Below, in pieces: positions 3,043-32,576 of a DNA stretch of 42,516 nucleotides. The DNA comes from an uncultured Candidatus Saccharibacteria bacterium (GTDB lineage Bacteria; Patescibacteriota; Minisyncoccia; Phycocordibacterales; JAACPR01), in contig CAYOAC010000003.1 in the NCBI GenBank assembly GCA_964401885.1, positions 1-42,516 of the forward strand, written 5' to 3'. Below the pieces are notes generated by a model. The model did not search any database. It was not told the origin of the DNA and saw only the letters and a program-made list of their open reading frames with translations. A program made the position numbers and the translations under genes. Each line of letters opens with the position of its first letter. The stretch's first letter is position 1.

Positions 3043-3444
3043 ATGAATAAATTCTTTACTTATTTCTTTGTTACATTGGGTGTTATATTTTCTTTAATAC
3101 TTTTATTTGTTGTTTATTTTTTTATCGTTGATCCATTTAATATAAGACCTTTTATATTTGGTGGAGAAAAAATTAATACTAAACAAGATGTTAATGTTGA
3201 AAAAAACACAAATACAAACACAAGTACGAGTACTGGTACAACATCTAGCAAGCCTTTCTTGACTGATGATCAGAAAAAAACTCTAGCAGGTTTTGGAGTT
3301 GATCCTGCATCATTACCTTCATCAATTACTCCAACTCAAGAAGCGTGTTTCAAAACAAAATTAGGTCCATCTCGTTTTGCTGAAATATCAGCTGGTGCTT
3401 CACCTTCAATTGCAGAATTCCTGAACGCAAAATCGTGTTTGTAG
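3043..3444 (+). CDS. membrane-anchored hypothetical protein with a Thr/Ser/Asn-rich linker
   Basis: 133-aa ORF with an N-terminal hydrophobic helix (FFTYFFVTLGVIFSLILLFVVYFFIV) followed by NTNTNTSTSTGTTSS. Confidence 0.55.
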   Translation: MNKFFTYFFVTLGVIFSLILLFVVYFFIVDPFNIRPFIFGGEKINTKQDVNVEKNTNTNTSTSTGTTSSKPFLTDDQKKTLAGFGVDPASLPSSITPTQEACFKTKLGPSRFAEISAGASPSIAEFLNAKSCL

Positions 3445-3461
3445 TATGGTATTATTGTTGT

Positions 3462-3815
3462 ATGTCAGAAGAATATAAAATACCAGATCCAAAATATTTG
3501 GATTCTGCAAATGGGGCAGAGAATATCGATACTGTTGAGCTTATGGCGGAATGGGTAAAAGATTTCAATGATCTTAAAAAATTAGGTGCAGTTGGTCTTG
3601 GTACTGGTCAAATAGTAAGTTTCCAACCATATGGACGTTATGAAGAAGGTAGACAGACAGGTAATGTTAGGATTTGGGAAGAAGATCCAGATCTTATAAC
3701 TATAAACTTTATGGGAAGTAAAGTGGGAATCCCATATCCAGACAATGAAAGAATTACTCGTGGAAATTTTGATACAAGGAAAGATGTTTTAAAGATTAAA
3801 AAAGATACCAACTAG
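3462..3815 (+). CDS. hypothetical protein
   Basis: The ORF is open from a GTG at 3435. The first ATG at 3462 (MSEEYK...) is preferred. No motif recognised. Confidence 0.45.
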   Translation: MSEEYKIPDPKYLDSANGAENIDTVELMAEWVKDFNDLKKLGAVGLGTGQIVSFQPYGRYEEGRQTGNVRIWEEDPDLITINFMGSKVGIPYPDNERITRGNFDTRKDVLKIKKDTN

Positions 3816-3889
3816 TCTTTGAGTTTGGATTATCTTGCATCATAAAAACTTTAATCTAATTAATTGTCTTTATATAATAAAATTTTTTT

Positions 3890-4606
3890 ATGAAAGAATC
3901 ATACGAATTTAATTTGGCTGAAAGAGAGAGTGCAATTGCAAGCTCTCAAATCTTAGAAGAAAAAGAAAACGTGACAACAGAAAAAACTGAATGTCCTTAT
4001 GATTTAAATAAACCCTATCAGGTTACCAACCCTGATACTATAATTGCGGGTAGTCAAGAAGCTTACGAAAATTTTTTTGATGCATTAAAAAATAAATATT
4101 TTGATTTCATGTATGAAGCTGAAATGATACTTCAAGATTTTCAACCTTTACCTAGAGATTTTTTTGATGATCAGGTAGTTCATGTTATGAGTTTGGAAAA
4201 TTACAGAATACTGGAAGATGACGACTATTTCGGCGATAACAAAAATAACGGCGGTGTTTATCTACAAACAAAAGATTCCGTTGTATTACCAAATGATGAT
4301 ACTTTCAGCGAAGGTAAAATGATCGTAAGACTATTTATAGATACTGATACTTTGTTTGGTAAAGGTAGAAAAATTTTTATTGATGAAGAAAGTATTACTG
4401 AGATGCCAGAAGAATATAAAAAATCATTTTTCATGTATGGTGGTATCCCAAGATCTGCGATTAAGAAAATTCAAATTATCAAAATGGGTAAACCAAAATT
4501 TGTTCAAGAACAAATTTGGGGTAATTATAAACAAAGAGAAAAAGAATATTTTCGTAGACTACAATCGGTAAGAGATAGGTTGAATAAAGTTGCTCATACA
4601 TCTTAA
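3890..4606 (+). CDS. hypothetical protein
   Basis: 238-aa ORF. TATAAT at 3873-3878 lies 11 nt upstream of the ATG. No motif recognised. Confidence 0.5.
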   Translation: MKESYEFNLAERESAIASSQILEEKENVTTEKTECPYDLNKPYQVTNPDTIIAGSQEAYENFFDALKNKYFDFMYEAEMILQDFQPLPRDFFDDQVVHVMSLENYRILEDDDYFGDNKNNGGVYLQTKDSVVLPNDDTFSEGKMIVRLFIDTDTLFGKGRKIFIDEESITEMPEEYKKSFFMYGGIPRSAIKKIQIIKMGKPKFVQEQIWGNYKQREKEYFRRLQSVRDRLNKVAHTS

Positions 4607-5758: not shown

Positions 5759-6271
5759 ATGAAAAAGATACCTTTCTTGTTAGCTTTGTTTATTGTTGCG
5801 GCTTTTACAATTATATTTGGTTGGTTAATTATTAATTCTTCAAAACAACTATTTGTTGAAATGCCTATTTTTGTAAAAACAAAAGAAATAATAAAAGATA
5901 ATTCTGTTAATAATAAATATGTGAGTGGGTGTCAGAATTCTGATAATGAAGACATGTCTAATGACCTTGATCTTATTGTGGAGGAGATTGGCAAAAAACA
6001 ATATTGTTTTCAGGCTGTAGATTTGGCTGAAGATTGTGCTTGGGGTGCTGCTGCTGATATGCAAATTACTTCGGTTGCTTCGACCATTTGTATGAAAGAA
6101 TTTGAAAAAAATAAACCTTCAGAAAAATTAAATTCTCAACTTAAGAACATGCAATCTTTATGTGATGAAAATTATAATAAACTTGAAGGAACAATGTATC
6201 TATCTGCTAACGCTTTTTGTTGTTTGAATGCTTTGGAGTGGGTAAATAATATTTCATCGATATCAGAATAA
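5759..6271 (+). CDS. signal-anchored Cys-containing protein, possibly LprI/DUF1311-like
   Basis: 170-aa ORF with an N-terminal hydrophobic segment. The spaced Cys residues in the C-terminal helical part give a weak resemblance only. Confidence 0.4.
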   Translation: MKKIPFLLALFIVAAFTIIFGWLIINSSKQLFVEMPIFVKTKEIIKDNSVNNKYVSGCQNSDNEDMSNDLDLIVEEIGKKQYCFQAVDLAEDCAWGAAADMQITSVASTICMKEFEKNKPSEKLNSQLKNMQSLCDENYNKLEGTMYLSANAFCCLNALEWVNNISSISE

Positions 6272-6295
6272 TATAAGATTTAAATTTCATTTTTT

Positions 6296-6304
6296 TGCTA
6301 TAAT
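6296..6304 (+). promoter_or_regulatory. extended -10 box (TGcTATAAT) 6 nt upstream of the ATG
   Basis: TG at 6296-6297, TATAAT at 6299-6304, ATG at 6311. Confidence 0.5.
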
Positions 6305-6310
6305 TAATAA

Positions 6311-7330
6311 ATGAAAATAAGTAATTCAATCTTTTTGGGATTATTGTTGCTAATCGTACTGGTGGGTGGTGGTTTATATTTATATATAGAAAAGAATTCA
6401 ATAGGTATTTATAATTTTGATAGTCCAAATATTGAGAAGAGGATTGTTGTCGATAATAAAACAGATTCTTTAAATCCTGTAATTGGCAAAGATATGGATG
6501 AAGATATGGCCGGTTATCATGCGATAAAAATGTTTATAAATACAGGTAATACAAAAATTCCAGAAGTATGTTTAAAATATGAAGTTCGAGAAAAATTTAG
6601 TCATTCTATTGTTTTTGATATTCTAGGAGTCTATGATAATTATTTTTGTAAAGATATTTCAAATAAAGATAAGCTAATTGGAAAAGTTAAAGTCGACACT
6701 TTGAATGCTAAAACTTACTTATTTGATAATTTTACTCAAGAATTTAATGTCCTAAAACTTGAAAATTTTCCTCCAATGTTTGATAAAATATTTTGTGAAA
6801 ATTTAATTAACAAGACACCAACTGAAAGTTTTATCTTATTAGGAAACAAAAATAATTCAGGATATTGTCCAGTAAATGTGAGTTCTGATGTGACCCTGTT
6901 GTTTTCATTTGAAAACATATCTTCAAGTTCTACCGACCCTGCTTTTGTTTTGAATATTTATGATTCAAATAAAGTTTTATTGCAAACTTTACCTATAGAA
7001 TATAATTGGGAGATTTCTCCAATTACGATGAATATACATGACGATATAAATTTTGATGGATATAGGGATTTATTGTTGAGGGTTATGGGTATACGTTCAT
7101 CACAATTTACATACTATAGATATAATCCATCTTTAAAAATTTTTGAAGAAGACGAGGTTTTATTTAGTATTTTTCTTCCTACATTTGATATTAATAAAAA
7201 AACGATTTCTTCGACGGCTGATACTCCAAATTATTATTGGGATGATGAAGGGAATCAAAAATATTACACTCCAGAGGAACAAACTACAGTATTTAAATTT
7301 GAAAATGGTGAATATAAGATTTTAGATTAA
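6311..7330 (+). CDS. secreted or membrane-anchored hypothetical protein
   Basis: 339-aa ORF with an N-terminal hydrophobic segment (IFLGLLLLIVLVGGGLYLYI). It contains a DINFDGYRDLLL element reminiscent of FG-GAP-type Ca-binding loops. Confidence 0.5.
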   Translation: MKISNSIFLGLLLLIVLVGGGLYLYIEKNSIGIYNFDSPNIEKRIVVDNKTDSLNPVIGKDMDEDMAGYHAIKMFINTGNTKIPEVCLKYEVREKFSHSIVFDILGVYDNYFCKDISNKDKLIGKVKVDTLNAKTYLFDNFTQEFNVLKLENFPPMFDKIFCENLINKTPTESFILLGNKNNSGYCPVNVSSDVTLLFSFENISSSSTDPAFVLNIYDSNKVLLQTLPIEYNWEISPITMNIHDDINFDGYRDLLLRVMGIRSSQFTYYRYNPSLKIFEEDEVLFSIFLPTFDINKKTISSTADTPNYYWDDEGNQKYYTPEEQTTVFKFENGEYKILD

Positions 7331-7462: not shown

Positions 7463-9241
7463 ATGTCAAAATACGTTGGTACTGAAGTTGCTGAACAAAT
7501 TCAACAACTTATGTTTGCAGAATTTGCAGATGATCCAAGGGAGCGTTTTTTACAGCAGGAACTTTCTCGCTATGTCCCTCAACTAGTTGGCTGGAATGAA
7601 CGGAAGGTTGCTGATTTTGTGAAATATCAAAGGGGTGTTTATCTCGAAAGAAGACTTCCGAATATGGGACGCCCCATTGCATCTTTGAATCCAACTTTTG
7701 TGGATTCGATTGATTCCATTCGTTTTGATTTGGAAGAAGGCAATTCTTATATTCGAGCATCTTTAAAGGAAAACGGATATCGCATGCAGCTTCATGTTGG
7801 AATTAGGGGTTCGACAGCATTTACACGTCAATTTACTCGATATGATTTGCGGATGTTTCCGGAACTCAAAAAGACATTGAGGAAATTGCCTGCCATGATT
7901 GGCGATGCTGAATTGGTGAATCGATATCATCCCCATCTTGCTGGTTTTAATCGAGTCCAATTGAGAATTCCAAATCAAAGCTATTGGCCTAAGCCTGGAA
8001 GCACAAAGTTGGAAGAGGATTTCCTTGCCGGATATCTGTCGAGTCCAACTTTATTTAATAACGGGCAATCTTTGAAAGACACTGAACTCACTTTGGTTTT
8101 TCATGGAATTTTTGCAATCGCACACCCGAGTACTTGGAATAAGTCCAGGAAGGTGCAGAAGGAAAATATGATTTCTTTTTGCAGACTTCCTATTGATTAT
8201 GAAAAAGTGGATGAAATTTTGGATCAACTTCATGATTTTATTCTAAAACATTCTTTGAACGCACGAGTTGTTGAAAGGGTGGTGGTCTCTACTCATGATC
8301 AATTGCAAATTTATGTTCAGCGCAATGAAGATTGTGGATATGAAGGAACTTGTGTTGTTCAGACGATTTGGGACAAGTCAGGAAATTTGATTGTCGGCCC
8401 TCGAAGTATCAAAATTAAAAGGTACGAAACTGTCGATTGTGCACTTCTTGGTTTGATTCTTGATCGAAGTGATGGAGGATTGGTAGAAGAAAATATCACC
8501 GGGGCTGTAGTTGGTCTTTACGATGAGATGCTTGGAGTTTATCTGCCTGTCGCAAAAGTTAATCTAGATCCTAACGGAGTTCAGATCAAAACTGCTGGGC
8601 AAAAAGAAAGACTCACAAAATTGCGATCTGAACTTGCTCTGATTGTTGGTACATGTGTTGATCCAGACAGAAAGATCTACACTCTCTTGGATGCATTTTT
8701 GATGCAAGGGAAACTCGTAGTCAAGTATATTTTTGGAGATGCTAAAGCCAAGGAGTTGGGTATTGATAAGGTTCTTGAAACAATGCCAGCTCGATCAAAT
8801 CTGATCGAGTTATGCGAGTTGTTTGATTCTGAAGAAGCTGCTTTTTGTGACGGTACAGCAAAACTGACAACTGTTCCCAAAAAGTTTGTTGCCGAGAATC
8901 TATCTTTTTTCCAAGCTGTAAAAGGTTTGGACAAAAAGGGAAAGAGAAGATTTTTCGGATACTTTTCTAAGATCAAACAAATCAAGATTACTTCGGCTAA
9001 ATTTGTTAAACCGCAAGTTGTGGTTGATACTACACAGCCAATTATTCTTGAGACTCAAGTCTTCGATATCAAATGGGGAGCATCTCCATTTGCGGCTGGA
9101 TTTCATTCGTGGTTTGCCAATTCTTTCCGTTTTAACAATTGTTTTGCTGAAAGAACTCGTCCAGACAAAAGTATTACAACCGATTATGCGACTGTGCATT
9201 CTCTCGCAAGAGTGAATTCGGTTAGAGTGGCTACTGTTTGA
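7463..9241 (+). CDS. ATP-dependent DNA/RNA ligase-like nucleotidyltransferase (divergent)
   Basis: Ordered covalent-nucleotidyltransferase motifs: I LKENGYRMQLH (KxNG in place of KxDG), III IGDAELV, IIIa LVFHGIFAI, IV EGTCVVQ, V SIKIKRY. Confidence 0.55.
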   Translation: MSKYVGTEVAEQIQQLMFAEFADDPRERFLQQELSRYVPQLVGWNERKVADFVKYQRGVYLERRLPNMGRPIASLNPTFVDSIDSIRFDLEEGNSYIRASLKENGYRMQLHVGIRGSTAFTRQFTRYDLRMFPELKKTLRKLPAMIGDAELVNRYHPHLAGFNRVQLRIPNQSYWPKPGSTKLEEDFLAGYLSSPTLFNNGQSLKDTELTLVFHGIFAIAHPSTWNKSRKVQKENMISFCRLPIDYEKVDEILDQLHDFILKHSLNARVVERVVVSTHDQLQIYVQRNEDCGYEGTCVVQTIWDKSGNLIVGPRSIKIKRYETVDCALLGLILDRSDGGLVEENITGAVVGLYDEMLGVYLPVAKVNLDPNGVQIKTAGQKERLTKLRSELALIVGTCVDPDRKIYTLLDAFLMQGKLVVKYIFGDAKAKELGIDKVLETMPARSNLIELCELFDSEEAAFCDGTAKLTTVPKKFVAENLSFFQAVKGLDKKGKRRFFGYFSKIKQIKITSAKFVKPQVVVDTTQPIILETQVFDIKWGASPFAAGFHSWFANSFRFNNCFAERTRPDKSITTDYATVHSLARVNSVRVATV

Positions 9242-9345: not shown

Positions 9346-9960
9346 ATGAAATACGAATATCCGTTTTTGAGCGATGCAGAAAATCGCGAAAGTTTTTTTG
9401 CTAGAATAGCAAGGTATTATCCGAGGTCCGACTTTCGATATCAGTTGATTGAAAAAGCATACAATTGTGTCAAAGATGCTTTTAGAGGAAAGGAACGCGA
9501 AGGTGGCGAGAGATACTTTGAACACATTCGGGCGGTTGCACTTTTTCTGATTGTTTATTTGAGGGTAAAAGATTATCGACTTATTATCGCAGCTTTGTTG
9601 CATGATATTGTTGAAGACATTCCTTCTTGGACAATCGAACGCGTGAGATTGGAGTTTGGTTCCTATGTTGCGATGCTTGTTGAATATCTTAGCAAGCCAT
9701 CCGAAAAGGAATTTCCTGACAAGAAGGAAAGAAATCATGTCTATCATGGAAGATTCAAGTTTGCACCAAGAGATTTTTTCCTTGTCAAACTTTGTGACAG
9801 ACTTCACAACATTTTGACTCTTGTTTTTTGTTCCAAAGAGAAAAGAGATCGTAAAATCGAGGAGACTCGAATTCATTATCTTCCATATGCCGAAGAACAT
9901 CTTATCTTGTTGCATGAAATTGAAAGTGCAGTATCTGAGATTGAAAAACTGGTTGCTTGA
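9346..9960 (+). CDS. stand-alone RelA/SpoT-type HD hydrolase (small alarmone hydrolase/Mesh1-like)
   Basis: 204-aa ORF. GERYFEHIRAVALFL...AALLHDIVEDI is the HD motif of the (p)ppGpp hydrolase domain. There is no synthetase domain. Confidence 0.75.
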   Translation: MKYEYPFLSDAENRESFFARIARYYPRSDFRYQLIEKAYNCVKDAFRGKEREGGERYFEHIRAVALFLIVYLRVKDYRLIIAALLHDIVEDIPSWTIERVRLEFGSYVAMLVEYLSKPSEKEFPDKKERNHVYHGRFKFAPRDFFLVKLCDRLHNILTLVFCSKEKRDRKIEETRIHYLPYAEEHLILLHEIESAVSEIEKLVA

Positions 9961-9967
9961 GATTCAG

Positions 9968-9998
9968 CTGACGAACTATTTGGTTCGTCAGTTTTTTT
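9968..9998 (+). terminator. intrinsic terminator
   Basis: CTGACGAAC-tatttg-GTTCGTCAG followed by TTTTTTT. Confidence 0.8.
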
Positions 9999-10005
9999 AT
10001 TATAA

Positions 10006-10034
10006 TTGACATTTTTCAATTCAAAGACTAATCT
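10006..10034 (+). promoter_or_regulatory. sigma70-type promoter, TTGACA-17-TAATCT
   Basis: TTGACA at 10006-10011 and TAATCT at 10029-10034. Confidence 0.45.
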
Positions 10035-10069
10035 AGGTTTAGATTCAAAATCAAACAAGAAAGAAACCA

Positions 10070-10894
10070 ATGTACACACCAAAATCGCAACGTCCGTATA
10101 TCGGAATTACTGATTTTATGAGTAATGAACAGGTGCGTTTAATGCTCGAAATGTTTAGACGAAGTCGTCAACCTAATTCTGTTAGACGTCTTCATGTCGG
10201 TGTTATGATGAGTTTTAATACTCTTTATGCATGTGAAACCAAATGGTCAATGGCGTTTCCTACGAGAGAAAATGTCGTAGATATTTTTCAACCAGTTGAT
10301 GATACTCGATCTGATAAGTATCGTGATCTCATTGATGATATTATGTTTACTTTACATTATGTTGATTATCATGATCGACCGACTCTTTTTCAAGATTTGA
10401 TGCTTGCATTACAATATTCCGGTCCATTTGTCGATGCTTTGCAACTTGATATGACTTGGCCGGATCCTGCTGCGATATCAAATGCTTTACACGCTTCTAG
10501 AAAGAATTTGGAAATTATTCTCCAAATTGGAACACGCGCTTTTGATTTGGCAGATAATGACCCTGATAGAGTAGTTGAAAATCTTTATCCATATCAAACA
10601 TTCGTTACACATGTTTTACTCGATAAAAGTATGGGTAAAGGTCTTGGGATGGATGCGGAGGGTTTACTTCCATTTGCTCGGGCGATTCGTAAAGAATATC
10701 CAAATATGGGAATCGTTGTTGCCGGAGGATTAGGTCCAAATACTATATGTCTTGCAGAACCGTTCCTTGATGAATTTCCTGATATTAGTATCGATGCGCA
10801 GGGGAGACTTCGACCCAGCGGAAATCTGATGGACCCAATTGACTGGGAAATGGCCGGCGAATATCTGACCAAAGCCCTGATAATGTTTCGATGA
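10070..10894 (+). CDS. TIM-barrel protein resembling phosphoribosylanthranilate isomerase (TrpF-like)
   Basis: 274-aa ORF. HVLLDKSMGKGLGMDAEGLL...GIVVAGGLGPNTI...ISIDAQGRLR parallels the TrpF pattern LLD..GGTG..FDW..L...ILAGGL.P.NV...GVDVSSGVE. The N-terminus has YIGITD. Confidence 0.4.
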   Translation: MYTPKSQRPYIGITDFMSNEQVRLMLEMFRRSRQPNSVRRLHVGVMMSFNTLYACETKWSMAFPTRENVVDIFQPVDDTRSDKYRDLIDDIMFTLHYVDYHDRPTLFQDLMLALQYSGPFVDALQLDMTWPDPAAISNALHASRKNLEIILQIGTRAFDLADNDPDRVVENLYPYQTFVTHVLLDKSMGKGLGMDAEGLLPFARAIRKEYPNMGIVVAGGLGPNTICLAEPFLDEFPDISIDAQGRLRPSGNLMDPIDWEMAGEYLTKALIMFR

Positions 10895-11956: not shown

Positions 11957-12976
11957 ATGAAAGACATAAACTACAATAAAGTGAAAACAGCCAAAGACTG
12001 CTTGTCTGATATTGCTGTGCATACTTCAACTCGAAGAAATGAACAAACCATTAGAGCAAGTCAATTGCTTGATGAATATGTAAGAGATGAAACAAAGATA
12101 CTTCAATCAAGATCTTTTAGACGTCTTTCAAAGAAAGCTCAAATTGTTTCAAGAACACTAAATGCAAATATTAGAAATAGAGAAGTTCATACCTTAGAGG
12201 TTACAAGTATAGCTATTAGAATAGCTTATTATCTTGGTTTAAATGTAAATTTAACAAGAGCCATGTCTCTTGGTCATGATCTCGGGCATGTTCCTTTTGG
12301 TCATCAAGGAGAAAATTTTTTGGCAAAAAGAAGTGGAAGAGAATTTAATCATAGGATTATGGGTATTATAATTTGTCAAAAAATTGAAAGAGATGGAGAG
12401 GGATTGAATTTATGTAAAGAAACTCTTGATGGTATGTACTATCATTCTGGTCCAGAAAAAAATAATTCTATGACACAAGAAGCAAAGGTTCTTCATTATG
12501 CAGATAGAATTGCAAATGTTTTTGCTGATGCGAATGATTTTATAAGGTTAGGATACAAAGCCGAGGATTCTTTACAGGAAGCATTGGATTATTTTGGAGA
12601 GAAACAAAGAGATAGAGTCGATAGCGCAGTAGCTTCACTTTGTGAAGAATCCCAAAAAGAACATAAAGTAATTTTTGAAAATTCAGAAGATGCTAAAAAG
12701 TTTTTTGAATTAGAATCTTTAATGTATAAAGTATATCCAAATATTTCTCAACAAGATGTGAGTCCTTTACTTAATCCGATATATGATTTTTTTGAATCAA
12801 CAAAAGAAATTGATCCAATATTAGCAATTTCTCTTATGACCGATGATGACATTTTATTTCTATTATCAAAAGATAAGATGTCTTGGGAAGACATTAAACA
12901 AACTTCTCTAGGTGAGATATTACATGTAATAAAAGGATTAGAAATTGACTTGGACGACCCTGATTTAGATTGGTAA
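11957..12976 (+). CDS. dGTPase-like HD-domain dNTP triphosphohydrolase (short form)
   Basis: RSFRRLSKKAQIV...NREVHTLEVTSIAIRIA...LGHDLGHVPFGHQGE is the Dgt-family signature. Length is 339 aa. Confidence 0.75.
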   Translation: MKDINYNKVKTAKDCLSDIAVHTSTRRNEQTIRASQLLDEYVRDETKILQSRSFRRLSKKAQIVSRTLNANIRNREVHTLEVTSIAIRIAYYLGLNVNLTRAMSLGHDLGHVPFGHQGENFLAKRSGREFNHRIMGIIICQKIERDGEGLNLCKETLDGMYYHSGPEKNNSMTQEAKVLHYADRIANVFADANDFIRLGYKAEDSLQEALDYFGEKQRDRVDSAVASLCEESQKEHKVIFENSEDAKKFFELESLMYKVYPNISQQDVSPLLNPIYDFFESTKEIDPILAISLMTDDDILFLLSKDKMSWEDIKQTSLGEILHVIKGLEIDLDDPDLDW

Positions 12977-13021
12977 AACAATAAGATGGTTTTTAGATAG
13001 ATGGTACATAGCTTTGTTTTT

Positions 13022-13030
13022 TGTTAATAT
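13022..13030 (+). promoter_or_regulatory. extended -10 box (TGtTAATAT) 11 nt upstream of the ATG at 13042
   Basis: TG at 13022-13023 and TAATAT at 13025-13030. Confidence 0.35.
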
Positions 13031-13041
13031 TTATATATAAA

Positions 13042-15909
13042 ATGGAAGCAATGCCAAAAAATAATGAAAGAAACATTCCTAAATTAAAATTTGAAGATAT
13101 TTTTAGGGATAAAAACAAGGATTTCAAATCTGAAAATTTAGATTGGTCTTGGTTAGATAATCTATCGCCAGAACAGTTGGAAGAAGTTGAAATAAATTTA
13201 AGATTACTTTCGTATCTTAATGGTCATAAGGGTGCTGATTTGCGTAATATTTCTCAAAAAAGTTCTACTCCAGAAGCAAATCATTTGAACAGATTACTTG
13301 CCTGGTCCAAAGCAATGTCTTCTCAAGGATCTATTAGTGTTGAAATATTAAAACCTGCACCTGAATCTATTAGAAATATTGGAGAAAATGAACTGTATGA
13401 AAGAATATATTTTTTGGATAAAAATCCTGATACTTCAAGAGAAAATATTTCCAATCAGGTACAGGCAAAATTTGCTGAAGTTTTAAGGATTAAAAGTGAA
13501 AAGTGGATTGATTTGATAGATCCATTATTTGATAATCCAAAATTATTAAAAGATATAATCAATAATTTTGGACTTATACCTGAAGAAATTTTTACAAAGA
13601 AAAAATTCAAAAGCGTTGAACCTAATAAAATAATTTTCTTGATAAATGAATTGAGAAAGTTAGAAGATACAAATTTTAAAAATGAATCTTTAAGAGCAAG
13701 AGCACGATTAATTAATCATCTTTTTATTTCTAAAAGAGCTGAGACAATTAGATCAAAAGATAAAAAAAATGTTTCATTAGATACAAACGGAATTATTATC
13801 AGTATGCATAATTTTCATTCTCATTTACCTTACGGTTTGATTGACGATCTTATGATTGATGAATTGACTGTCGGTAATTGGTTAGATCAAAAAAGTGCTG
13901 ATGAAATAAAAATAATGCGGGCCTCTTCTAATAATTTACAAAGTGAAGTTCTAGATATTGTTTCTCAACAAGATAAAACTTTTTCAGAAGCTCTTAATTG
14001 TAAAAAAGAAGAATTCTTCACTCTTTTGAAAAACAAAGGTTCTAGAATTGTGGCAAGAAAGATTATCGAACAAGATTTAATCATTCCAATTAGTTGGCTT
14101 GATTCAGTACGGACATCAGAGGATTCTTTTTTAACTATTTCACTTGCCGAAGAAATCACTTCTGTATTAAGTGATGCCGAACCAAGATCTAGCTATAATC
14201 TTTCAGACTATTCTACAAGTGCTGTTGTATCTAAAGTTTTTGATGCCCAATCAAAAATAGTAAATAGTAAACATTATTACAATGTTTCAAGACTTATGAA
14301 TTGTTTCTTTTTAAATACTCCTGAATCATCTGTCGAAAATAAATACGCAGTTGTAAAAAGTGAATATAAAGTTTCAAATAAAGGAGATACTCAATCTTTT
14401 GTCGCTGCTATCCATGAAGATAAAATTGCTAGAGTTTTGATTAATGAAAGAAAACATGTTTCACCACAAATAAAAGATTCTTTCGGTAAAATACCTAGTT
14501 ATTCTAGGACAAATTATGAAAACTTAGAAGCATCTATGAATGTTTTTGACTCATTTGTTAATTCCTTGAACGCTATATCGTCTTTTTCAGAAACGAGTAC
14601 AGAGGGAATAGATGATAATTTAAGTACAACAAAAGAAGAACTATTAAAATATATTGAAAACTGTCTGCACTTTGTTCTCAATAATGTTTCTGATTATTAC
14701 AATCAGTCACTTGGAATTTATGAATCTATAAGATTAAGTCAAGAAGTCTCTTTAGATAAAGTTAATGAATTGACAACAATTTTATTAAAAGTAAAAGAAG
14801 TTTATTCTCAATTTCTATATAAAAATATTTTGGAACAAGATACATTTGAAAATCATTTTTCACCAGAAATAACTAAAGGTGAAATAAAATTTGGAGATGA
14901 ATTTTTGGCTGAAGTGCAAAAAGTATGCCCAGGTAATTTTGACGAAGGTTTAAGTGGTGCAGATTTTTCTGTTCGAGTGGTAAGTTTGAATTATAAATTA
15001 GAGGATCCTAGTCAGACTATTCCATTTCATATTGAAGAGAGTTGTTTGGATGCTCTAAGAATAAATAGACAACGCCCACTTTTAAATATTATTGGTGGAT
15101 GTAAACATCTTGATGGAGGGAAAAATCCGCTTGAGGTATTCAGTGATTCTGTGATGAATGTTGCTCACAAATATAAAGCTAATGTTGGAATACCTCAAAC
15201 TCAATCGGGAATAGGTATAAATTTTGGTTCAAAAAATATTGAATATGAAAGAAGGTTCGGTAGTTTGCCATTTGCAGAAAAAGCTCATTTTTTTACTATA
15301 AGTCCTGGCGGGAGTGTTTATTTTCCTGAAAATAAATTTTTAGAAAAAGATGGTAAGTCTTCTGTATATGCAAATACAACAGTAGATACTTTTATGACAC
15401 CTATTCCTGCAGAATGGAATAAAAAAGGTCGTGATAAATATACCTCTAAATACATAACTCATATCGCTTATATGGAAGCTTTGTATTCCAAGATGAGTAT
15501 TAATCAAAAACATATTATGGTAGTTGGTAATGGGGGACTATTTAGTATTATGGAAATTAACGAATCTCTTAAAAGAGGTGTTGAACTTCTATTGGTAAAA
15601 AATACCGGAAGATTTGCAGAAGCTGCTAGTATTCTAGTAGGTCATATTGATGAAATATTAAATTCTGAAACGATGGATCGCGAGATTTTAAATATTTTAA
15701 AAGAAAAAATGAACTCACAAAGTTTTGAAGAATTTTGTAAAAAAGATTTTGGATATGAAGAATCTCCTGAGAATGAAGATTACGAAGTTTATAGGGATTA
15801 CTTCAGAAATTTTTTATTGTTAGCTCAAAAAAATATAAAAGTGGTAAGAAGTACGGAATTGGAAAATTTGGAGCAGTCTTTGGATGATTTGTTGAAAGAA
15901 AAAAAGTAA
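13042..15909 (+). CDS. large protein with an uncharacterised ~650-aa helical N-terminal region and a C-terminal SLOG/LSDAT-like (TRPM-SLOG type) domain
   Basis: The C-terminal ~300 aa carry the SLOG Gly-rich series: LLNIIGGCKH, PQTQSGIGINFG, IMVVGNGGLFSIMEINE, LLLVKNTGRFAEAASIL (compare the VVxxGSGRxAD pattern of TRPM/LSDAT SLOG domains). Start is taken at the first ATG. Confidence 0.55.
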   Translation: MEAMPKNNERNIPKLKFEDIFRDKNKDFKSENLDWSWLDNLSPEQLEEVEINLRLLSYLNGHKGADLRNISQKSSTPEANHLNRLLAWSKAMSSQGSISVEILKPAPESIRNIGENELYERIYFLDKNPDTSRENISNQVQAKFAEVLRIKSEKWIDLIDPLFDNPKLLKDIINNFGLIPEEIFTKKKFKSVEPNKIIFLINELRKLEDTNFKNESLRARARLINHLFISKRAETIRSKDKKNVSLDTNGIIISMHNFHSHLPYGLIDDLMIDELTVGNWLDQKSADEIKIMRASSNNLQSEVLDIVSQQDKTFSEALNCKKEEFFTLLKNKGSRIVARKIIEQDLIIPISWLDSVRTSEDSFLTISLAEEITSVLSDAEPRSSYNLSDYSTSAVVSKVFDAQSKIVNSKHYYNVSRLMNCFFLNTPESSVENKYAVVKSEYKVSNKGDTQSFVAAIHEDKIARVLINERKHVSPQIKDSFGKIPSYSRTNYENLEASMNVFDSFVNSLNAISSFSETSTEGIDDNLSTTKEELLKYIENCLHFVLNNVSDYYNQSLGIYESIRLSQEVSLDKVNELTTILLKVKEVYSQFLYKNILEQDTFENHFSPEITKGEIKFGDEFLAEVQKVCPGNFDEGLSGADFSVRVVSLNYKLEDPSQTIPFHIEESCLDALRINRQRPLLNIIGGCKHLDGGKNPLEVFSDSVMNVAHKYKANVGIPQTQSGIGINFGSKNIEYERRFGSLPFAEKAHFFTISPGGSVYFPENKFLEKDGKSSVYANTTVDTFMTPIPAEWNKKGRDKYTSKYITHIAYMEALYSKMSINQKHIMVVGNGGLFSIMEINESLKRGVELLLVKNTGRFAEAASILVGHIDEILNSETMDREILNILKEKMNSQSFEEFCKKDFGYEESPENEDYEVYRDYFRNFLLLAQKNIKVVRSTELENLEQSLDDLLKEKK

Positions 15910-15917
15910 AAGTGAAA

Positions 15918-15954
15918 ACCGCTATACATCTGGTGTGATGCATAGCGGTGTTTA
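15918..15954 (+). terminator. intrinsic terminator after the SLOG-domain gene
   Basis: ACCGCTATaCATC-tggtgt-GATGcATAGCGGT followed by GTTTAT. Confidence 0.6.
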
Positions 15955-16016
15955 TCTGCTTGGGGCAGACAGTCTCACTCTCACCGAAAGCTAGTTCGGT
16001 AAAAATATGACTTTGC

Positions 16017-16042
16017 TTTTGTCTGCCCGTGGGCGGACAAAA
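16017..16042 (-). terminator. hairpin immediately downstream of the minus-strand gene 16045-16524
   Basis: TTTTGTCTGCC-cgtg-GGCGGACAAAA with one G-U pair. It begins 3 nt after the stop codon. Confidence 0.5.
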
Positions 16043-16044
16043 GC

Positions 16045-16524
16045 TTACGTGTTTTGGAGTTGTTCGATGCAGTACTCCACTGCTTCTTTTTCGGTTTTGA
16101 AAACCGGGGTTTCATGGCGTTTGGCCAACTCGAGCAGATATTCTCGAGCCCGATTGAGGTCTTTCAATTCACCTTTGGTGACGACGCTCCCTGCGATTTC
16201 GGCTCCGTCAGGAATATTATTGATGACGAGCACCACCTTTCGGCCTTTGATCACGTATTCCGTGACCTCGATCATCGCGGCAATTGCTCGGGTCTGTCCG
16301 TCAATGACGAACAAGAGCATTTCCGAAGCTTCCTTTTCGATGGCTTCGAATTCAGTCATACCCCCGACAATCCCTTGTCCCTTGAGTTCTTCGTCACGGA
16401 CGTTCCAATCTTCGACCTGGGGGTTGAAGAATTCGACGCCAGCAGCAATGAGCAGGGGAATGGCGACGATTTGGCGCCAGGTGGTGGGATTACAGGAACC
16501 TCCGAGGAACAGTTGTTTCTTCAT
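16045..16524 (-). CDS. nucleoside 2-deoxyribosyltransferase-like protein (Nuc_deoxyri_tr2-type N-glycosidase fold)
   Basis: 159-aa ORF. MKKQLFLGGSCNPTTWRQ...FFNPQVEDW and EASEMLLFVIDGQTRAIAAMIEVTEYVIKGRKVVLVI match the family pattern (GG...WR...NP...W, then a Glu-containing strand-helix). It is clearly GC-richer than its neighbours. Confidence 0.6.
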   Translation of the reverse strand: MKKQLFLGGSCNPTTWRQIVAIPLLIAAGVEFFNPQVEDWNVRDEELKGQGIVGGMTEFEAIEKEASEMLLFVIDGQTRAIAAMIEVTEYVIKGRKVVLVINNIPDGAEIAGSVVTKGELKDLNRAREYLLELAKRHETPVFKTEKEAVEYCIEQLQNT

Positions 16525-16712
16525 TTGACTTCAGTCTTTCTTTCTTTTTTCGATTTGATGTACTTTGTTAACACTCCGACGTAGGTCTGAGCGTGTCCCG
16601 ATAATATACATAATAAATTAAATTTGTCAATATTTTTATAAATTATAAAAATATAATTATTGACTTTAATGAATAACGTGGTAACGTTGTGATTGAACAT
16701 TTGATCATATTT

Positions 16713-17369
16713 ATGAAAAAAACATACGTGATGTTGTTGTCTGTTGTTGGATTTTTTACATTTCTTGCTGCCTGTAGCCCAGAAAATTCTGAAAAGGCTA
16801 ATATCCCAGATTGGCCAGAACAAGAGAGTGTCGATACGTCTATCCCAAATAAGCGTGCCATGGTCATCGTTTTTGATGGATCAGGTTCTATGAAAGGAGA
16901 CAAAATCAAACAAGCTAAGACTGCGGTCAAAACTTATGTTGATGCTCTGCCAAAGGACGTTGAATTGGGTGTTGTGGCTTTTGATGCGAATGGAATTCGT
17001 ACATTGTCCGAAATTTCTTCTGATCGTCAAAAGGCTACGTCTCAAATTTCAAATATCAAAGCGGATGGATCTACTCCTCTTGCCAGAGCTGTAGCTATGT
17101 CTTACGAAATGCTTATTTCTTGGGCCAAAACCCAAAAAGGATTCTGCGAGTATCATCTTGTTGTGATTACTGATGGGGAAGCTCAAAACAAAGTTCTTCT
17201 CAAAAATCACGTTGATAAGATTATAAAAACTCCTGTTAGGATTTTTACGATTGGGTTCCAGATTGGAACTGATCATTCTCTCAATCAAGCAGGTGTTCGT
17301 TATGTTTCGGCGGATAATACTGCTGAACTCTCTAAGGGGCTTGCTCAAGTTCTTGCTGAGAAAGAGTAA
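16713..17369 (+). CDS. vWA-domain lipoprotein
   Basis: Signal peptide with lipobox FLAAC. MIDAS motif VIVFDGSGSM. The vWA pattern continues through DGSTPL and VVITDGEA. Start is taken at ATG 16713. Confidence 0.8.
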   Translation: MKKTYVMLLSVVGFFTFLAACSPENSEKANIPDWPEQESVDTSIPNKRAMVIVFDGSGSMKGDKIKQAKTAVKTYVDALPKDVELGVVAFDANGIRTLSEISSDRQKATSQISNIKADGSTPLARAVAMSYEMLISWAKTQKGFCEYHLVVITDGEAQNKVLLKNHVDKIIKTPVRIFTIGFQIGTDHSLNQAGVRYVSADNTAELSKGLAQVLAEKE

Positions 17370-17463: not shown

Positions 17464-19134
17464 ATGGCATATTTACTGTTCCCAGGTAGACATTTATTAA
17501 ATACAAAATTCCAAGAAGAATACCTTTGGGATGTTTTAAGACTTCCAATTAAAAAACTTGATCTATATGGCGACTGCCAATTGAATCCAGAAGATAAAAT
17601 TGAAAATATTATCTTTGCGGTAACATCTTCAAATCAAGCACATTCAAGATATAATCCTATTTCTTTTTTTGAAAGAGCAATTGGTCTTGATCGTTTTGCA
17701 CAAAATTATAAAAAAACTTTAGGAATAAATTATAAAATTATTGGTATTCCACATTTTAATCCAAATGAAAAATTTGCTGGGTTTACTTTAAAAGAAATTA
17801 ATGAAAACACAGAAGGAGAAATTATCCTTACACCCCAAAACACAATTGTACTTTGCTCTACTCCGGCAATTATTGAGCAATATAGTAAATTAGGTTTTTG
17901 TATTTTACCTGCAGAATATGATTTAGAAGAAAAAAAGTATCAAGCCATTACACCAATTGATATTTTAAAAAAAGTTGTAGAAAAGGGAGTTGATTGGTCG
18001 GTTGACAATGATATTAAGAATTTGATGTCAAAATCTTCTTTTGAACTTTGGAAAGATTTTTCTGAAATACCAAAAACAGTTTTGAGATTATGGAATGACC
18101 CATTGTTAACTGATACTGGAAGTCTTACTCTTGATAGAAATTATAGTATTTATGCTTACGGTATGAATAATAATTCTTTGATGGAATTAAAATATAAAGA
18201 CATTAAAGATTCTATTAAACAGGGAAAGATTGTTGATGAGGGATGTGCCGATGGTGCATTACTAGTTAGGATATCTGAAGATTTTCCTGATTCTGATTTG
18301 ATAGGAATTGAACTTACAACAGAATTCACTGCAAGATGTGAAGAAAGATTGCGTGCAGGGGAATTTGGTGGATCATTCGTTCATTTTCATCAAAGGAATT
18401 TGCTGGATAAAATTTTTCAAGACAATACAATTGATACAACTATTTGTAATTCAACAACTCATGAACTTTGGTCATATGCAGATCAAAAAGAAAGCTTAAT
18501 TGGTTATTTGCAAAAGAAATATAATCAAACATCTTTTGGTGGAAGATTGGTGATTCGTGATGTGGTTGGTCCAGAGAATAAAGACGAAGAAATTTATATG
18601 AAACTTAATGATACTGATGGATCAAATGAAGATATTTTTAAAGAATTTGAATCTAAAGATGACCTGAGCTCACATTTATCAGGTCTTTCAACTTCCGCAA
18701 GATTTTTAAGATTTGCCGAAGAATATTTAAAAGATATGAGGACAAAAGGTAAGAGAACAATAGAGTCTAAAATTGTATATAGAGAAGAAAATATTAATGG
18801 AGAAAAATATTTTGTTCTTAGATTAAAAGATGCTATTGAGTTTATTACAAAAAAAGATTACACCAATAATTGGAATAGTGAGTTAAATGAAGAATTTGCA
18901 TATTGGAGTTTTTCAGAATGGAAAAATATTTTAACTGAAGTTGGTTTTAAAGTTTTAGAAAATCCGAACGATCCAAAGAATGGTTCAAGAGAATATACTA
19001 ATCCTTGGATTGTAGAAAATAGATGGATTAATAAAGTTGAATTTTTTAGAAAAAAAGATTCTGGCTTAGAAACAATTCCATTTCCTGCAACAAACATGGT
19101 TCTGGTGGCAGAAAAAGATAAGAAAATAGAATAA
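17464..19134 (+). CDS. two-domain protein: N-terminal domain of unknown function plus C-terminal class I SAM-dependent methyltransferase
   Basis: Methyltransferase motif I is IVDEGCADGALLV, followed by LIGIELT. The N-terminal LLFPGRHLLNTKFQ loosely resembles the F-x-P-x-H-x-G-H nucleotidyltransferase loop but is degenerate. Confidence 0.55.
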   Translation: MAYLLFPGRHLLNTKFQEEYLWDVLRLPIKKLDLYGDCQLNPEDKIENIIFAVTSSNQAHSRYNPISFFERAIGLDRFAQNYKKTLGINYKIIGIPHFNPNEKFAGFTLKEINENTEGEIILTPQNTIVLCSTPAIIEQYSKLGFCILPAEYDLEEKKYQAITPIDILKKVVEKGVDWSVDNDIKNLMSKSSFELWKDFSEIPKTVLRLWNDPLLTDTGSLTLDRNYSIYAYGMNNNSLMELKYKDIKDSIKQGKIVDEGCADGALLVRISEDFPDSDLIGIELTTEFTARCEERLRAGEFGGSFVHFHQRNLLDKIFQDNTIDTTICNSTTHELWSYADQKESLIGYLQKKYNQTSFGGRLVIRDVVGPENKDEEIYMKLNDTDGSNEDIFKEFESKDDLSSHLSGLSTSARFLRFAEEYLKDMRTKGKRTIESKIVYREENINGEKYFVLRLKDAIEFITKKDYTNNWNSELNEEFAYWSFSEWKNILTEVGFKVLENPNDPKNGSREYTNPWIVENRWINKVEFFRKKDSGLETIPFPATNMVLVAEKDKKIE

Positions 19135-19136
19135 TA

Positions 19137-19169
19137 AAAACGCCATAAGAGAGTATCTCGTGGCGTTTT
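19137..19169 (+). terminator. intrinsic terminator
   Basis: AAAACGCCA...TGGCGTTTT with an inner GAGA/TCTC pairing. Confidence 0.6.
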
Positions 19170-19211
19170 AAGTCGGTTTCAACTTCAAGTATTATGCTTT
19201 TTCTTTTTTGA

Positions 19212-19250
19212 GAAAAGAAAAAGCTGAGCACCGCATGACGATGCTCAGCT
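19212..19250 (-). terminator. intrinsic terminator of pncB
   Basis: On the minus strand: AGCTGAGCA-tcgtcatgcgg-TGCTCAGCT followed by TTTTTCTTTT. Confidence 0.75.
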
Positions 19251-19264
19251 TTGGATTGAACCAA

Positions 19265-27763: not shown

Positions 27764-27769
27764 ACGCTT

Positions 27770-29629: not shown

Positions 29630-29668
29630 TGTCTCAATATCCAAACAAAAACAGAAAGCACTCTTGAA

Positions 29669-30733: not shown

Positions 30734-30746
30734 TCTTGGTCTCTTC

Positions 30747-30767
30747 CTGAAAACTGAAAACTGAAAA
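30747..30767. repeat. three perfect tandem CTGAAAA heptamers in the pncA-like/vWA intergenic spacer
   Basis: CTGAAAA at 30747-30753, 30754-30760 and 30761-30767. Confidence 0.9.
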
Positions 30768-30784
30768 ACAAAAATACGAAAAAT

Positions 30785-32494: not shown

Positions 32495-32550
32495 ATGTAT
32501 AAAAGTAGCACTTAAAGGTGTTTTTGTAAAAAGAGATTTCTGTTTTCTGT

Positions 32551-32576
32551 AACCCACACGATTGTGTGGGTTTTTT
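32551..32576. terminator. GC-rich hairpin with a T-run (second of two tandem hairpins)
   Basis: AACCCACAC-gatt-GTGTGGGTT followed by TTTT on the plus strand. Confidence 0.45.

Follow-up and report, generated by a model that had tools for sequence, protein, structure and literature searches.

What does a 955-aa protein with a SLOG-like C-terminus do, and which of the features around its gene belong together with it? The question is raised by a locus in the 42,516-nt stretch of DNA analysed here (hereafter the window, i.e. the whole stretch, with positions counted from its first letter), for which an earlier note had suggested a four-gene module comprising the large gene, a dGTPase-like HD gene, a nucleoside 2-deoxyribosyltransferase-like (NDT-like) gene and a vWA lipoprotein gene. 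The features described there are all present in their places. The conserved unit is composed differently: it consists of the large gene, a convergent, GC3-rich ORF of ~160 aa, and a structured RNA of ~130 nt with a shared terminator.

The large gene (13042..15909, plus strand) encodes a protein of the LSDAT family, the C-terminal domain of which is a SLOG/LSDAT Rossmannoid with intact pocket motifs. The Pfam model PF18171 (LSDAT_prok) matches aa 678-872 (15073..15657, plus strand) with an E-value of 2.3e-6 and 27.4 bits (gathering score 25.4), homologues of the protein likewise bear PF18171, and the motifs IIGG, SGIG, VVGNGG..E and KNTGRFAEAA, in which a domain of the TRPM/LSDAT type had already been recognised, are readable in the translation. 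Structure prediction agrees with this assignment: in an AlphaFold2 model containing the domain (pLDDT 82.4) the fold is that of a SLOG Rossmannoid, and 49 of the 50 best matches listed by Foldseek against the PDB are MHR1/2 regions of TRPM2, TRPM3, TRPM5, TRPM7 or TRPM8 (best E 6.9e-7, probability 1.00). These matches span ~320-370 columns, the SLOG fold reaching beyond the Pfam limits on either side. Residues conserved in at least 88% of the 45 full-length members comprise G685 and G686, T720, Q721, S722, G723 and G725, N830, G831, G832 and E838, and G856 and R857. When the domain is aligned by HMMER to TRPM2 of zebrafish, the motifs IGG, GTQSGIG, NGG and GR line up, and R857 comes to lie opposite R334 in a stretch scoring just 1.0 bit. 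The zebrafish residue presumably corresponds to R358 of human TRPM2, which would make R857 the equivalent of a phosphate-contacting arginine. In the human channel, R358 contacts the phosphates of ADPR (PMC6759353). TRPM2 MHR1/2, the best structural match, nevertheless differs in several respects, since the bacterial domain is C-terminal in a soluble protein with neither a channel nor a NUDT9H domain, and the two share only 10-16% identity. Moreover, the bacterial family has an invariant glutamate (E838) within GGxxSxxE, whereas zebrafish TRPM2 has a threonine at the aligned position. This is presumably the place of the catalytic glutamate of LOG enzymes (motif PGGxGTxxE), and with E838 the SLOG domain may possibly act as an enzyme and not as a sensor.

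The remainder of the protein has no such relatives. Outside PF18171, no match was obtained in Pfam, NCBIfam, PADLOC or PHROGs, and the region of aa 1-612 yielded zero Pfam matches across eight homologues as well. The AlphaFold2 model of this N-terminal module (13042..14877, plus strand) is confident (pLDDT 84.5, pTM 0.81) and displays an alpha-helical architecture plus two three-stranded beta units, for which Foldseek found no significant fold relatives in the PDB (best E 0.17) or BFVD (best E 0.18). The earlier impression that nothing is recognisable in the first ~650 aa hence stands for some 610 aa at the levels of both Pfam profiles and structure. Several polar residues of the module are conserved family-wide (R68, R220, D247, H261, E288, E370, R464 and E496), and a sub-region of about aa 154-384 is found also in proteins devoid of a SLOG domain (P0231 and others). 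A search of 1.84 billion representatives retrieved 128 clusters (50% identity) of the large protein; for 79 the E-value lies below 1e-30, and the majority are full length (~950-1050 aa). Where relatives are named, their source is a MAG with the label Candidatus Parcubacteria or Saccharibacteria, and plasmids and phages, also searched, gave zero matches. The family is thus rare and seen mainly in CPR/Parcubacteria-type genomes.

Comparison of the neighbourhoods separates the genes previously grouped together. The dGTPase-like HD gene (11957-12976), located directly upstream of the large gene on the same strand, and the vWA lipoprotein gene (16689-17369), located beyond the NDT-like gene, are both what they had been taken for (Pfam HD with E 8.8e-14, a short dGTPase-family protein; PF00092 with E 8.6e-17, lipobox FLAAC readable). 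The HD gene adjoins the large gene only in the window, lies ~5 kb away in L006, the closest relative, and does not occur in the flanks elsewhere among the loci; the vWA lipoprotein gene, too, is adjacent only in the window, and one other locus has an unrelated 584-aa vWA protein. From the four-gene module, the linkage of the NDT-like gene survives (it recurs in six loci), while the dGTPase-like HD gene and the vWA lipoprotein gene, being unconserved, are bystanders outside the unit. An identification of the HD protein as an anti-phage dGTPase was considered and rejected, as it reaches 77 bits against the NF041026 cut-off of 400 and its match to the PADLOC dGTPase (6.8e-34) covers just model positions 27-168 of 395. 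Its matches to NCBIfam dGTPase models (up to 3.5e-52) are below the cut-offs, including those to the closest models, the short housekeeping-type PRK01286 dGTPases. The partial dGTPase match is the sole one returned by PADLOC for the locus, so the suggested search for a known defence system ended without one being recognised. The loci lie among housekeeping genes whose synteny is conserved in part (PDF-FMT, DEAD helicase, His_Phos_1), with His_Phos_1 phosphatases adjacent in L005, L012 and L017; upstream of the large gene in L001 are genes for DUF4238 and SHOCT proteins, presumably of kinds often found in variable regions. The full NAD salvage set reported beside the cluster in the window is indeed there, comprising genes for PncB, PnuC, a NadR-like protein, NadD, NadE and NrtR.

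The gene convergent with the large gene (16045..16524, minus strand) encodes a 159-aa NDT-like protein of the DrHyd superfamily, its earlier annotation being borne out by PF15891 (Nuc_deoxyri_tr2; E 1.9e-16; 60.7 bits, the cut-off being 30). At least 296 homologues exist, many standalone and some eukaryotic; no solved structure related to the protein by sequence was found in the PDB. Invariant in the family are FLGGSC.PT.WR, K64, T78, R79, E86, D122, N124 and R127. E86, which follows T78-R79 and is invariant in 34 homologues, presumably occupies the place of the nucleophilic glutamate of the fold, as judged by its segment rather than by alignment to a characterised enzyme. The protein resembles nucleoside 2-deoxyribosyltransferases and DNPH1, but those members that accompany the large gene form a subfamily with a 12-aa insertion, and the genomic contexts of the family indicate NAD/ADPR rather than deoxynucleoside metabolism. 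In Nomurabacteria the NDT gene adjoins those for NAD kinase, PncB, NadE and an ADP-ribosylglycohydrolase; in L019 it is three genes away from an ADP-ribosylglycohydrolase, and 2.7 kb separate it from PncB in the window.

Linkage of the NDT-like gene to the large gene is supported by its position as the convergent downstream neighbour in the window, L001, L003, L006, L009 and L017, six independent loci with differing other flanks on both sides, and by L016, where a divergent NDT-like gene lies 27 nt upstream of a distant family member and is co-directional with it. The pairwise identities of the NDT-like and large proteins order the loci in much the same way, which fits co-inheritance. The association has its exceptions, with L005 and L022 harbouring family members without either the RNA or a small partner, and L018 having the RNA behind an NDT gene but no adjacent large gene. 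As the NDT-like family is far more widespread than that of the large protein, its members may possibly be housekeeping salvage enzymes. The convergent arrangement of the large gene and the small ORF excludes an operon, and a promoter-like site in front of the NDT-like gene (16601..16630, minus strand; TTGACA-16-TATATT, 11 of 12 positions, from a consensus scan) is weak evidence, given that such sites are no more numerous in this region than expected by chance.

In other clades, the slot of the NDT-like gene is occupied by ORFs X and Y, each of ~160 aa and unrelated, for which we found no recognisable enzyme identity. This weakens the notion of the small partner as a signal-making enzyme. In L024, X adjoins a protein that lacks a SLOG domain and has just a portion of the N-terminal module, which ties the small partner to this module. 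All small ORFs of the slot are strikingly rich in GC at third positions: in the window, the NDT-like gene has a GC content of 0.51 and GC3 of 0.59, as opposed to 0.29 and 0.17 for the large gene. The clearly higher GC of the NDT-like gene had been pointed out before; what the earlier note missed is that it is a family-wide trait of the partner slot and not a local oddity.

Between the two genes lies a previously undescribed structured RNA, absent from Rfam and likewise missed before. It is encoded on the strand of the NDT-like gene (15898..16047, minus strand), was delimited from an intergenic alignment, RNAalifold and a covariance model, and comprises four hairpins. P1 (16044-16015) starts directly behind the NDT stop codon and contains a CC-YAHG-GG unit that is fixed in ten loci, P2 (16012-15971) has the loop ACUAGCUU, identical in the seven best-matching loci, and P3 (15970-15954) is followed by P4 (15949-15918), which abuts the stop codon of the large gene. 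P4 fits an intrinsic terminator (GC-rich hairpin and U-run) when read on the minus strand, and its sequence fits one on the plus strand too. The back-to-back terminators reported earlier are therefore real as two stem-loops, yet they form part of the larger conserved RNA; P1-P3 have no U-runs behind them. The region folds in the window with an MFE of -66.9 kcal/mol (z = -12.0), and RNAalifold gives -50.6 kcal/mol on the NDT strand versus -30.8 on the opposite one, with G-U pairs being strand-specific. In the alignment, which was fitted to the model, 93.6% of cells are paired, versus ~41% in slid controls, and double (compensatory) changes are seen in 37 of the 49 pairs, some loop sequences remaining fixed while the stems covary. 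The covariance model (R1), built from five loci, recovers four loci outside its training set (33-56 bits, E 1e-10 to 1e-20). The RNA is present in nine of the 11 loci whose sequence can be read beyond the 3' end of the large gene, whichever small ORF is there, and it always starts exactly at the stop codon of that ORF, be it NDT, X or Y, three unrelated ORFs. With nucleotide identities of 67-89% compared to 57-79% in coding regions, it is more conserved than either coding gene; synonymous sites are saturated between the loci, with the exception of the window versus L006. Rfam 15 gave no match in the window at gathering thresholds, and at E up to 10 just chance-level miRNA and snoRNA matches in 15850-16100. 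The RNA is similar to bacterial 3' UTR elements and terminators in its canonical P4 and its location on the strand of the upstream ORF, and dissimilar in its three additional covarying hairpins, partly fixed loops, start at the stop codon, and association with three unrelated ORFs.

How, then, may these components work? TIR, DrHyd and SLOG domains belong to one Rossmannoid clade employed in NAD/ADPR signalling (PMC9503650), and our preferred reading, to which we assign a probability of about one half, is that of a predicted unit that senses a nucleotide ligand (probably of the NAD/ADPR type), whose small partner is exchangeable and whose two genes are coupled by an RNA. The SLOG pocket would bind a ribosyl-nucleotide ligand, most plausibly of the ADP-ribose type and derived from NAD+, and ligand binding would control the N-terminal output module. 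The small partner, in the clade of the window a predicted DrHyd/nucleoside 2-deoxyribosyltransferase-like N-glycosidase, would set the ligand level by making or clearing the ligand. As for the RNA, it would form the structured 3' portion of the small-ORF transcript and may stabilise or regulate this transcript; it may also insulate or couple the two convergent genes. Somewhat more tentatively, the sensor with its new-fold 610-aa module, the GC3-biased small protein (DrHyd, X or Y) and the dedicated RNA class could work together as an undescribed three-part system of CPR bacteria, one conceivable division of labour being control of the ligand level by the small protein and gating of the expression of both convergent genes by the RNA.

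The simplest alternative, that there is no functional unit and that inherited synteny has merely left terminators or insulators between convergent genes, draws on the convergence itself, the promoter-like site of the NDT-like gene, the typical bidirectional terminator P4 and the synteny persisting among some loci. We regard it as very improbable, considering that the pair is kept while the flanks change on both sides, that a distant lineage has an NDT-like gene co-directional with the large gene, that P1-P3 are not terminators and are conserved above coding sequence against a background of saturated synonymous sites, and that the same RNA follows three unrelated ORFs. The latter fact, together with the co-occurrence of the RNA and the large gene and the fixed loops amid covarying stems, could instead point to a ribonucleoprotein, in which the RNA would serve the large protein as a trans-acting partner or as a substrate, through binding to the N-terminal module or through an action of the SLOG domain on it; certain SLOG families do bind DNA or act on tRNA (PMC9503650). 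This, too, seems decidedly improbable: the large protein is acidic throughout (every segment net negative, median pI 4.8-6.2 across 45 members), the RNA has the look of a 3' UTR, as its invariable start at the stop codon implies, and in L018 it occurs behind the NDT gene with the large gene not adjacent.

A Thoeris-like anti-phage or conflict system, in which the DrHyd protein would play the role of ThsB and produce a nucleotide signal on infection, with the large protein, like ThsA, sensing through its C-terminal SLOG domain and arresting the cell by an N-terminal effector, is an unlikely explanation. The layout has its parallel in ThsA (a large protein with the output module at its N-terminus and SLOG at its C-terminus, and a small standalone partner from the TIR/DrHyd/SLOG clade; PMC9503650), and a nucleotide-derived small ligand is predicted here too. 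The rare and patchy distribution of the family, the exchangeable small-ORF slot with atypical GC, a feature common in conflict loci, and the DUF4238 and SHOCT genes of L001 would fit as well. However, ThsB is a TIR protein, whereas the partner here is DrHyd/NDT-like with no TIR match in Pfam or PADLOC, and ThsA combines SIR2 with SLOG, whereas the N-terminal module here is neither SIR2 nor transmembrane; with neither a ThsB-type TIR partner nor a ThsA-type effector found, membership in Thoeris was rejected. The SLOG domain belongs with TRPM/LSDAT and not with the YpsA-like clade, the one linked to cADPR sensing (PMC9503650). PADLOC matches neither protein, phages and plasmids lack the family in our searches, and the loci sit amid housekeeping genes. 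The convergent arrangement around a conserved RNA, the slot taken by unrelated proteins of which X and Y are not recognisable enzymes, the apparent co-inheritance of the NDT-like and large proteins, and the occurrence of the NDT family alone beside NAD salvage genes are further departures from Thoeris or from what a system of its kind would lead one to expect. These last associations, along with the salvage set adjoining the cluster in the window and the His_Phos_1 neighbours, are what a role in nucleotide or NAD salvage would predict, the SLOG domain being catalytic like LOG/PpnN and, with the NDT-like enzyme, recycling bases and ribose phosphate in an organism unable to make nucleotides. CPR bacteria depend on salvage, the superfamily is shared with LOG/PpnN, the LOG-like glutamate E838 is retained where zebrafish TRPM2 has a threonine, and PpnN likewise carries extra regulatory domains. 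We nevertheless consider this role quite unlikely: Pfam and the fold search place the domain with LSDAT and the non-catalytic TRPM MHR1/2 rather than with LOG, the extra module is far larger than and unrelated to that of PpnN, and the family is too rare for a core salvage step. Salvage would also leave the 610-aa module, the dedicated RNA and the swap of NDT for the non-enzyme-like X and Y unexplained.

The SLOG domain ties the large protein to NAD/ADP-ribose sensing and is of the type that gates animal TRPM2 channels; as a prokaryotic relative, it would allow ligand recognition to be examined in a soluble protein. The module of 610 aa devoid of relatives, the RNA motif absent from Rfam and the GC3 excess of the partner slot are three separate oddities, each testable on its own; if module, RNA and GC3-rich partner do belong together, they would represent a new kind of nucleotide-sensing unit. 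CPR bacteria, whose genomes are tiny, invest heavily in this conserved 955-aa protein and its dedicated RNA, and the unit, if real, could show how NAD and nucleotide economy or defence is regulated in episymbiotic bacteria.

When DNA gathered around other members of the large-protein family was compared with the window, only part of the neighbourhood proved to be conserved. The earlier note had proposed a four-gene module consisting of a dGTPase-like HD protein, the 955-aa LSDAT-family protein (13042-15909, + strand), the convergent 159-aa NDT-like protein (here NDT; 16045-16524, - strand) and a vWA lipoprotein. The pairing of the large gene with NDT stands: by a six-frame phmmer search, six loci (the window, L001, L003, L006, L009 and L017) have NDT as the next gene downstream, in convergent orientation. 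In L003 the public gene call at this position is on the wrong strand. The other half of the proposal does not hold: the HD gene adjoins the large gene only in the window, lies about 5 kb off in L006 (the closest relative of the window, with 69% identity) and is absent from the flanks of the remaining loci, and the vWA lipoprotein stands beside the large gene in the window only. Both were excluded from the unit because their linkage to the large gene is not conserved. The predicted identities of these neighbours were nevertheless borne out. The upstream HD protein is of the dGTPase type (NCBIfam PRK01286, E = 3.5e-52, though below the cut-off), reaching only 77 bits with an anti-phage dGTPase model that requires 400; the 159-aa protein matches PF15891 (Nuc_deoxyri_tr2) with E = 1.9e-16; the vWA protein beyond the NDT gene carries a lipobox; and the NAD salvage genes reported nearby (PncB, PnuC, a NadR-like gene, NadD, NadE and NrtR) are found just past the NDT/vWA cluster.

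The remaining flanks vary among the six NDT loci: HD, HIT, RNase R, Metallophos, DUF4238 or His_Phos_1 genes precede the pair, and vWA, SMC or CAP genes follow it. The loci are ranked much alike by NDT and by large-protein pairwise identity. Contig L016, which is GC-rich, carries an NDT-like gene of divergent sequence (hhalign probability 94.5%) 27 nt upstream of a distant large-family member and co-directional with it. The conserved unit thus consists of the LSDAT-family gene, a small GC-rich ORF convergent with it and a structured RNA between the two. A His_Phos_1 histidine phosphatase gene adjoins the LSDAT-family gene in L005 (5600-6421) and L017 (8977-9747), and is one gene away from it, beyond the small ORF, in L012 (11817-12527); the copy in the window (31682-32557) is a remote relative at a distance of 16 kb. 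The phosphatase may represent an additional, looser partner.

The C-terminus of the large protein had been described as a SLOG/LSDAT domain, and both sequence and structure searches agree with this. Its sole Pfam match is LSDAT_prok (PF18171; aa 678-872, 27.4 bits against a gathering score of 25.4), and NCBIfam, PADLOC and PHROGs gave no match at all. In a Foldseek search of the PDB with an AlphaFold2 model built on an eight-member alignment (A1; pLDDT 82.4), the MHR1/2 region of TRPM channels accounted for 49 of the 50 best matches listed (best E = 6.9e-7, probability 1.00, about 320-370 columns), which identifies the C-terminal third as a SLOG domain of the TRPM type. A profile search of PDB sequences aligns zebrafish TRPM2 with the family's LINVIGG, GTQSGIG, VVGNGG and TGRFAE motifs; R857 of the family falls opposite zebrafish R334, the second aligned stretch alone contributing only 1.0 bit, and E838 is replaced by Thr. 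Zebrafish R334 is presumably the counterpart of human R358. The latter contacts the ADP-ribose phosphates in the MHR1/2 cleft (PMC6759353). The SLOG motifs and E838 are conserved at 88% or more in 45 full-length members with identity down to 23%. An exhaustive HMMER search delimits the family to 128 clusters at 50% identity (79 with E < 1e-30), most of which retain the full-length architecture unchanged, while a few proteins match solely around aa 154-384. Relatives with names belong to MAGs that bear the label Candidatus Parcubacteria or Saccharibacteria; all members of the family have the annotation "hypothetical".

The N-terminal module (aa 1-612) is a different case. Modelled separately, it yields a confident structure (pLDDT 84.5, pTM 0.81), with which Foldseek retrieved nothing significant from the PDB (best E = 0.17) or BFVD (best E = 0.18) and only a weak resemblance (probability about 0.2) to the cytosolic domain of CorA. 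Pfam searches with eight members at E up to 10 gave no match in any of them, nor did HMMER profile comparisons with the PDB, PHROGs, NCBIfam and PADLOC, in keeping with the earlier description of the first ~650 residues as motif-free. Conserved polar residues (R68, R220, D247, H261, E288, E370, R464, E496) are scattered along the module. Because the protein is acidic, including the whole of this module, general RNA binding is disfavoured as its role.

The small ORF facing the large gene is not always NDT. In L012 (11071-11595), L023 (4328-4810) and the syntenic locus of protein P0005, the ORF ending at the first hairpin of the RNA encodes X, a protein of about 160 aa unrelated to NDT that belongs to a rare orphan family (11 clusters, motif NPDWYSP...W/SGAGQ, no Pfam match above threshold). 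In L014 (4391-4873) the ORF upstream of the RNA encodes Y, a third unrelated 160-aa protein and likewise an orphan. The possibility that NDT, X and Y are distant relatives of one another was rejected by hhalign and BLASTP. Whichever ORF precedes the RNA, its stop codon (UAA or UAG) abuts the first hairpin. In L024 the X gene (9539-10054) lies directly downstream of that for P0231, a protein corresponding to part of the N-terminal module and devoid of a SLOG domain, with no RNA present beside this pair; the small partner is thereby tied to the N-terminal module.

Occupants of the slot also share an unusual base composition, their GC3 being 0.44-0.97 compared with 0.17-0.55 in their neighbours. 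The higher GC noted for the NDT gene of the window, itself an AT-rich stretch (GC 0.34) of mosaic composition, corresponds to a GC3 of 0.59 as opposed to 0.17 in the large gene. In L001, L003, L006 and L017 the respective values are 0.67-0.76 and 0.18-0.46, and even a ribosomal protein gene of L003 reaches only 0.40. The X genes of L012 and L023 show 0.83 and 0.44 next to large genes with 0.28 and 0.23, that of L024 shows 0.97 next to 0.55 in the P0231 gene, and Y in L014 shows 0.73 next to 0.24. NDT in L007, where there is no LSDAT gene nearby, is similarly GC3-rich (0.64 versus 0.42-0.53). The excess persists across genomes of differing base composition with synonymous sites saturated, and may be due either to strong selection, acting on expression or on mRNA stability, or to foreign genes having been imported repeatedly.

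The convergent genes had been thought to be separated by back-to-back terminators. One terminator hairpin with a U-run is indeed there, but the region as a whole (15898-16047, - strand) is a conserved RNA of four hairpins, first seen by aligning the ~135-nt intergenic regions of NDT-containing loci. On the NDT strand, P1 follows directly after the stop codon, P2 bears the loop ACUAGCUU (identical in the seven best-matching loci and slightly varied in L017, L018 and L023), P3 is a short hairpin, and P4 is the terminator, abutting the stop codon of the large gene. Nucleotide identity is 67-89% in the intergenic region and 74-93% in P1-P3, compared with 57-79% in the flanking coding sequences, the synonymous sites of which are saturated except between the window and L006. 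RNAalifold gave -50.6 kcal/mol for the NDT strand against -30.8 for the opposite one, and the window sequence folds with -66.9 kcal/mol (z = -12.0). A covariance model built from five loci recovered the element in four loci unseen in training (L012, L014, L023 and L017; 33-56 bits, E from 1e-10 to 1e-20), each time just 3' of the large gene on the opposite strand. In the nine-sequence alignment, which was fitted to the model, 93.6% of cells are paired compared with about 41% with slid partners, both sides have changed in 37 of 49 pairs, and the covariation score is 0.72 against 0.12-0.16, none of 500 shuffles matching the observed values. A second model found a match (42 bits) after the NDT gene of L018, which no large gene adjoins; the motif is absent from L005 and L022, both of which have the large gene. 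Rfam 15 contains no matching family. In the 3' region of the relatively GC-rich PncB gene (window 19119-19252, - strand), an AGCU-flanked hairpin, a second hairpin and a terminator score 34 bits with the RNA model R2 and lack the ACUAGCUU loop; these could be distantly related to the motif or simply generic hairpins.

Several other explanations of this element were considered. About 30 G-U wobble cells would become A-C mismatches on the opposite strand, which orients the RNA on the NDT strand and favours a single-stranded fold over a palindromic operator acting as double-stranded DNA. A signal for stop-codon readthrough or recoding was rejected because the alignment shows no conservation of the reading frame past the stop between loci. 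A cassette site resembling integron attC is unsupported because there is no adjacent integrase, four hairpins stand in place of one long imperfect hairpin, no GTTRRRY core was seen in the intergenic sequence, and NDT is co-inherited with the large gene. Origin from a mobile element was likewise rejected, as searches of plasmids and phages returned no relatives of the large protein, the RNA pattern occurs in none of the viral contigs, and jumbo phages have only weak NDT matches.

The NDT family, with at least 296 homologues, is much larger than its pairing with the large gene, and the paired copies share a 12-aa insertion. Some homologues (P0059, P0060, P0091) are fused to EF-hand calcium-binding domains, eukaryotic fusions being among those found, and at least one standalone homologue (P0069) is from a eukaryote collection, so the family may have calcium-linked versions outside bacteria too. 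A Nomurabacteria NDT adjoins NAD kinase, PncB, NadE and ADP-ribosylglycohydrolase with no LSDAT gene nearby, and in L019 NDT and ADP-ribosylglycohydrolase are three genes apart. The NDT gene of L009 has an in-frame TAG (8036-8038) replacing TGG at a nearly invariant Trp (NPQ..DW), beside an intact RNA and large gene; either the copy is a pseudogene, or the TAG reflects recoding or an error in sequencing.

Some other genes encountered deserve mention. In L006 (11973-14612, - strand), an 879-aa protein encoded between an HD_4 gene and the HIT/LSDAT genes has domains of the major vault protein (MVP_shoulder and, faintly, Vault_3 in Pfam); for a CPR-type bacterium to possess a vault-like protein would be unusual. 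Adjoining the NAD salvage genes of the window (26891-31603) are genes for a PP2C phosphatase and three uncharacterised proteins (619, 354 and 272 aa), and homologues of three of the four (PP2C, 619 aa, 354 aa) adjoin NDT and NAD salvage genes in Nomurabacteria (L007, 6651-11000), making this a conserved uncharacterised operon linked to NAD genes. Window ORFs of 592, 274, 133, 126, 238, 170 and 339 aa have no Pfam match (Pfam-negative regions being 7463-9241, 10070-10894, 3043-4606 and 5759-7330), and the first two have no NCBIfam match either.

How might the unit work? In the favoured model, the SLOG pocket would sense a ribosyl-nucleotide, most likely an NAD-derived ligand of the ADP-ribose type. 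This choice is based on the parallel with TRPM2, on the occurrence of the NDT family near NAD and ADP-ribosylglycohydrolase genes, and on the established role that the TIR/DrHyd/SLOG clade plays in NAD/ADPR signalling (PMC9503650). The sensor would govern the N-terminal module, and the small partner would produce or remove the ligand, NDT enzymatically and X and Y, purely conjecturally, perhaps by binding it. The RNA would act as a structured 3' UTR stabilising or regulating the small-ORF transcript, and would link both convergent genes via the shared terminator. The domain assignments are ordinary, the family being covered by an existing Pfam model; going by Rfam, Pfam, PDB, BFVD, PADLOC and the literature searched, the novel features are the N-terminal module, the RNA motif, the conserved pairing of the genes and the GC3 rule that the slot follows. 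We group the unit as a SLOG-based nucleotide-sensing two-gene system, with a substantial chance that it is something more distinct.

As to its biological purpose, the unit may serve defence or conflict with a Thoeris-like logic, as the rarity of the large family, the exchangeable partner and the atypical GC of the slot would suggest, but its surroundings are housekeeping genes with partial synteny, NDT and the large gene are apparently co-inherited, PADLOC gives no match and mobile elements carry no relatives. It may instead contribute to the NAD or nucleotide economy of the cell, or it may serve a purpose specific to the episymbiotic lifestyle.
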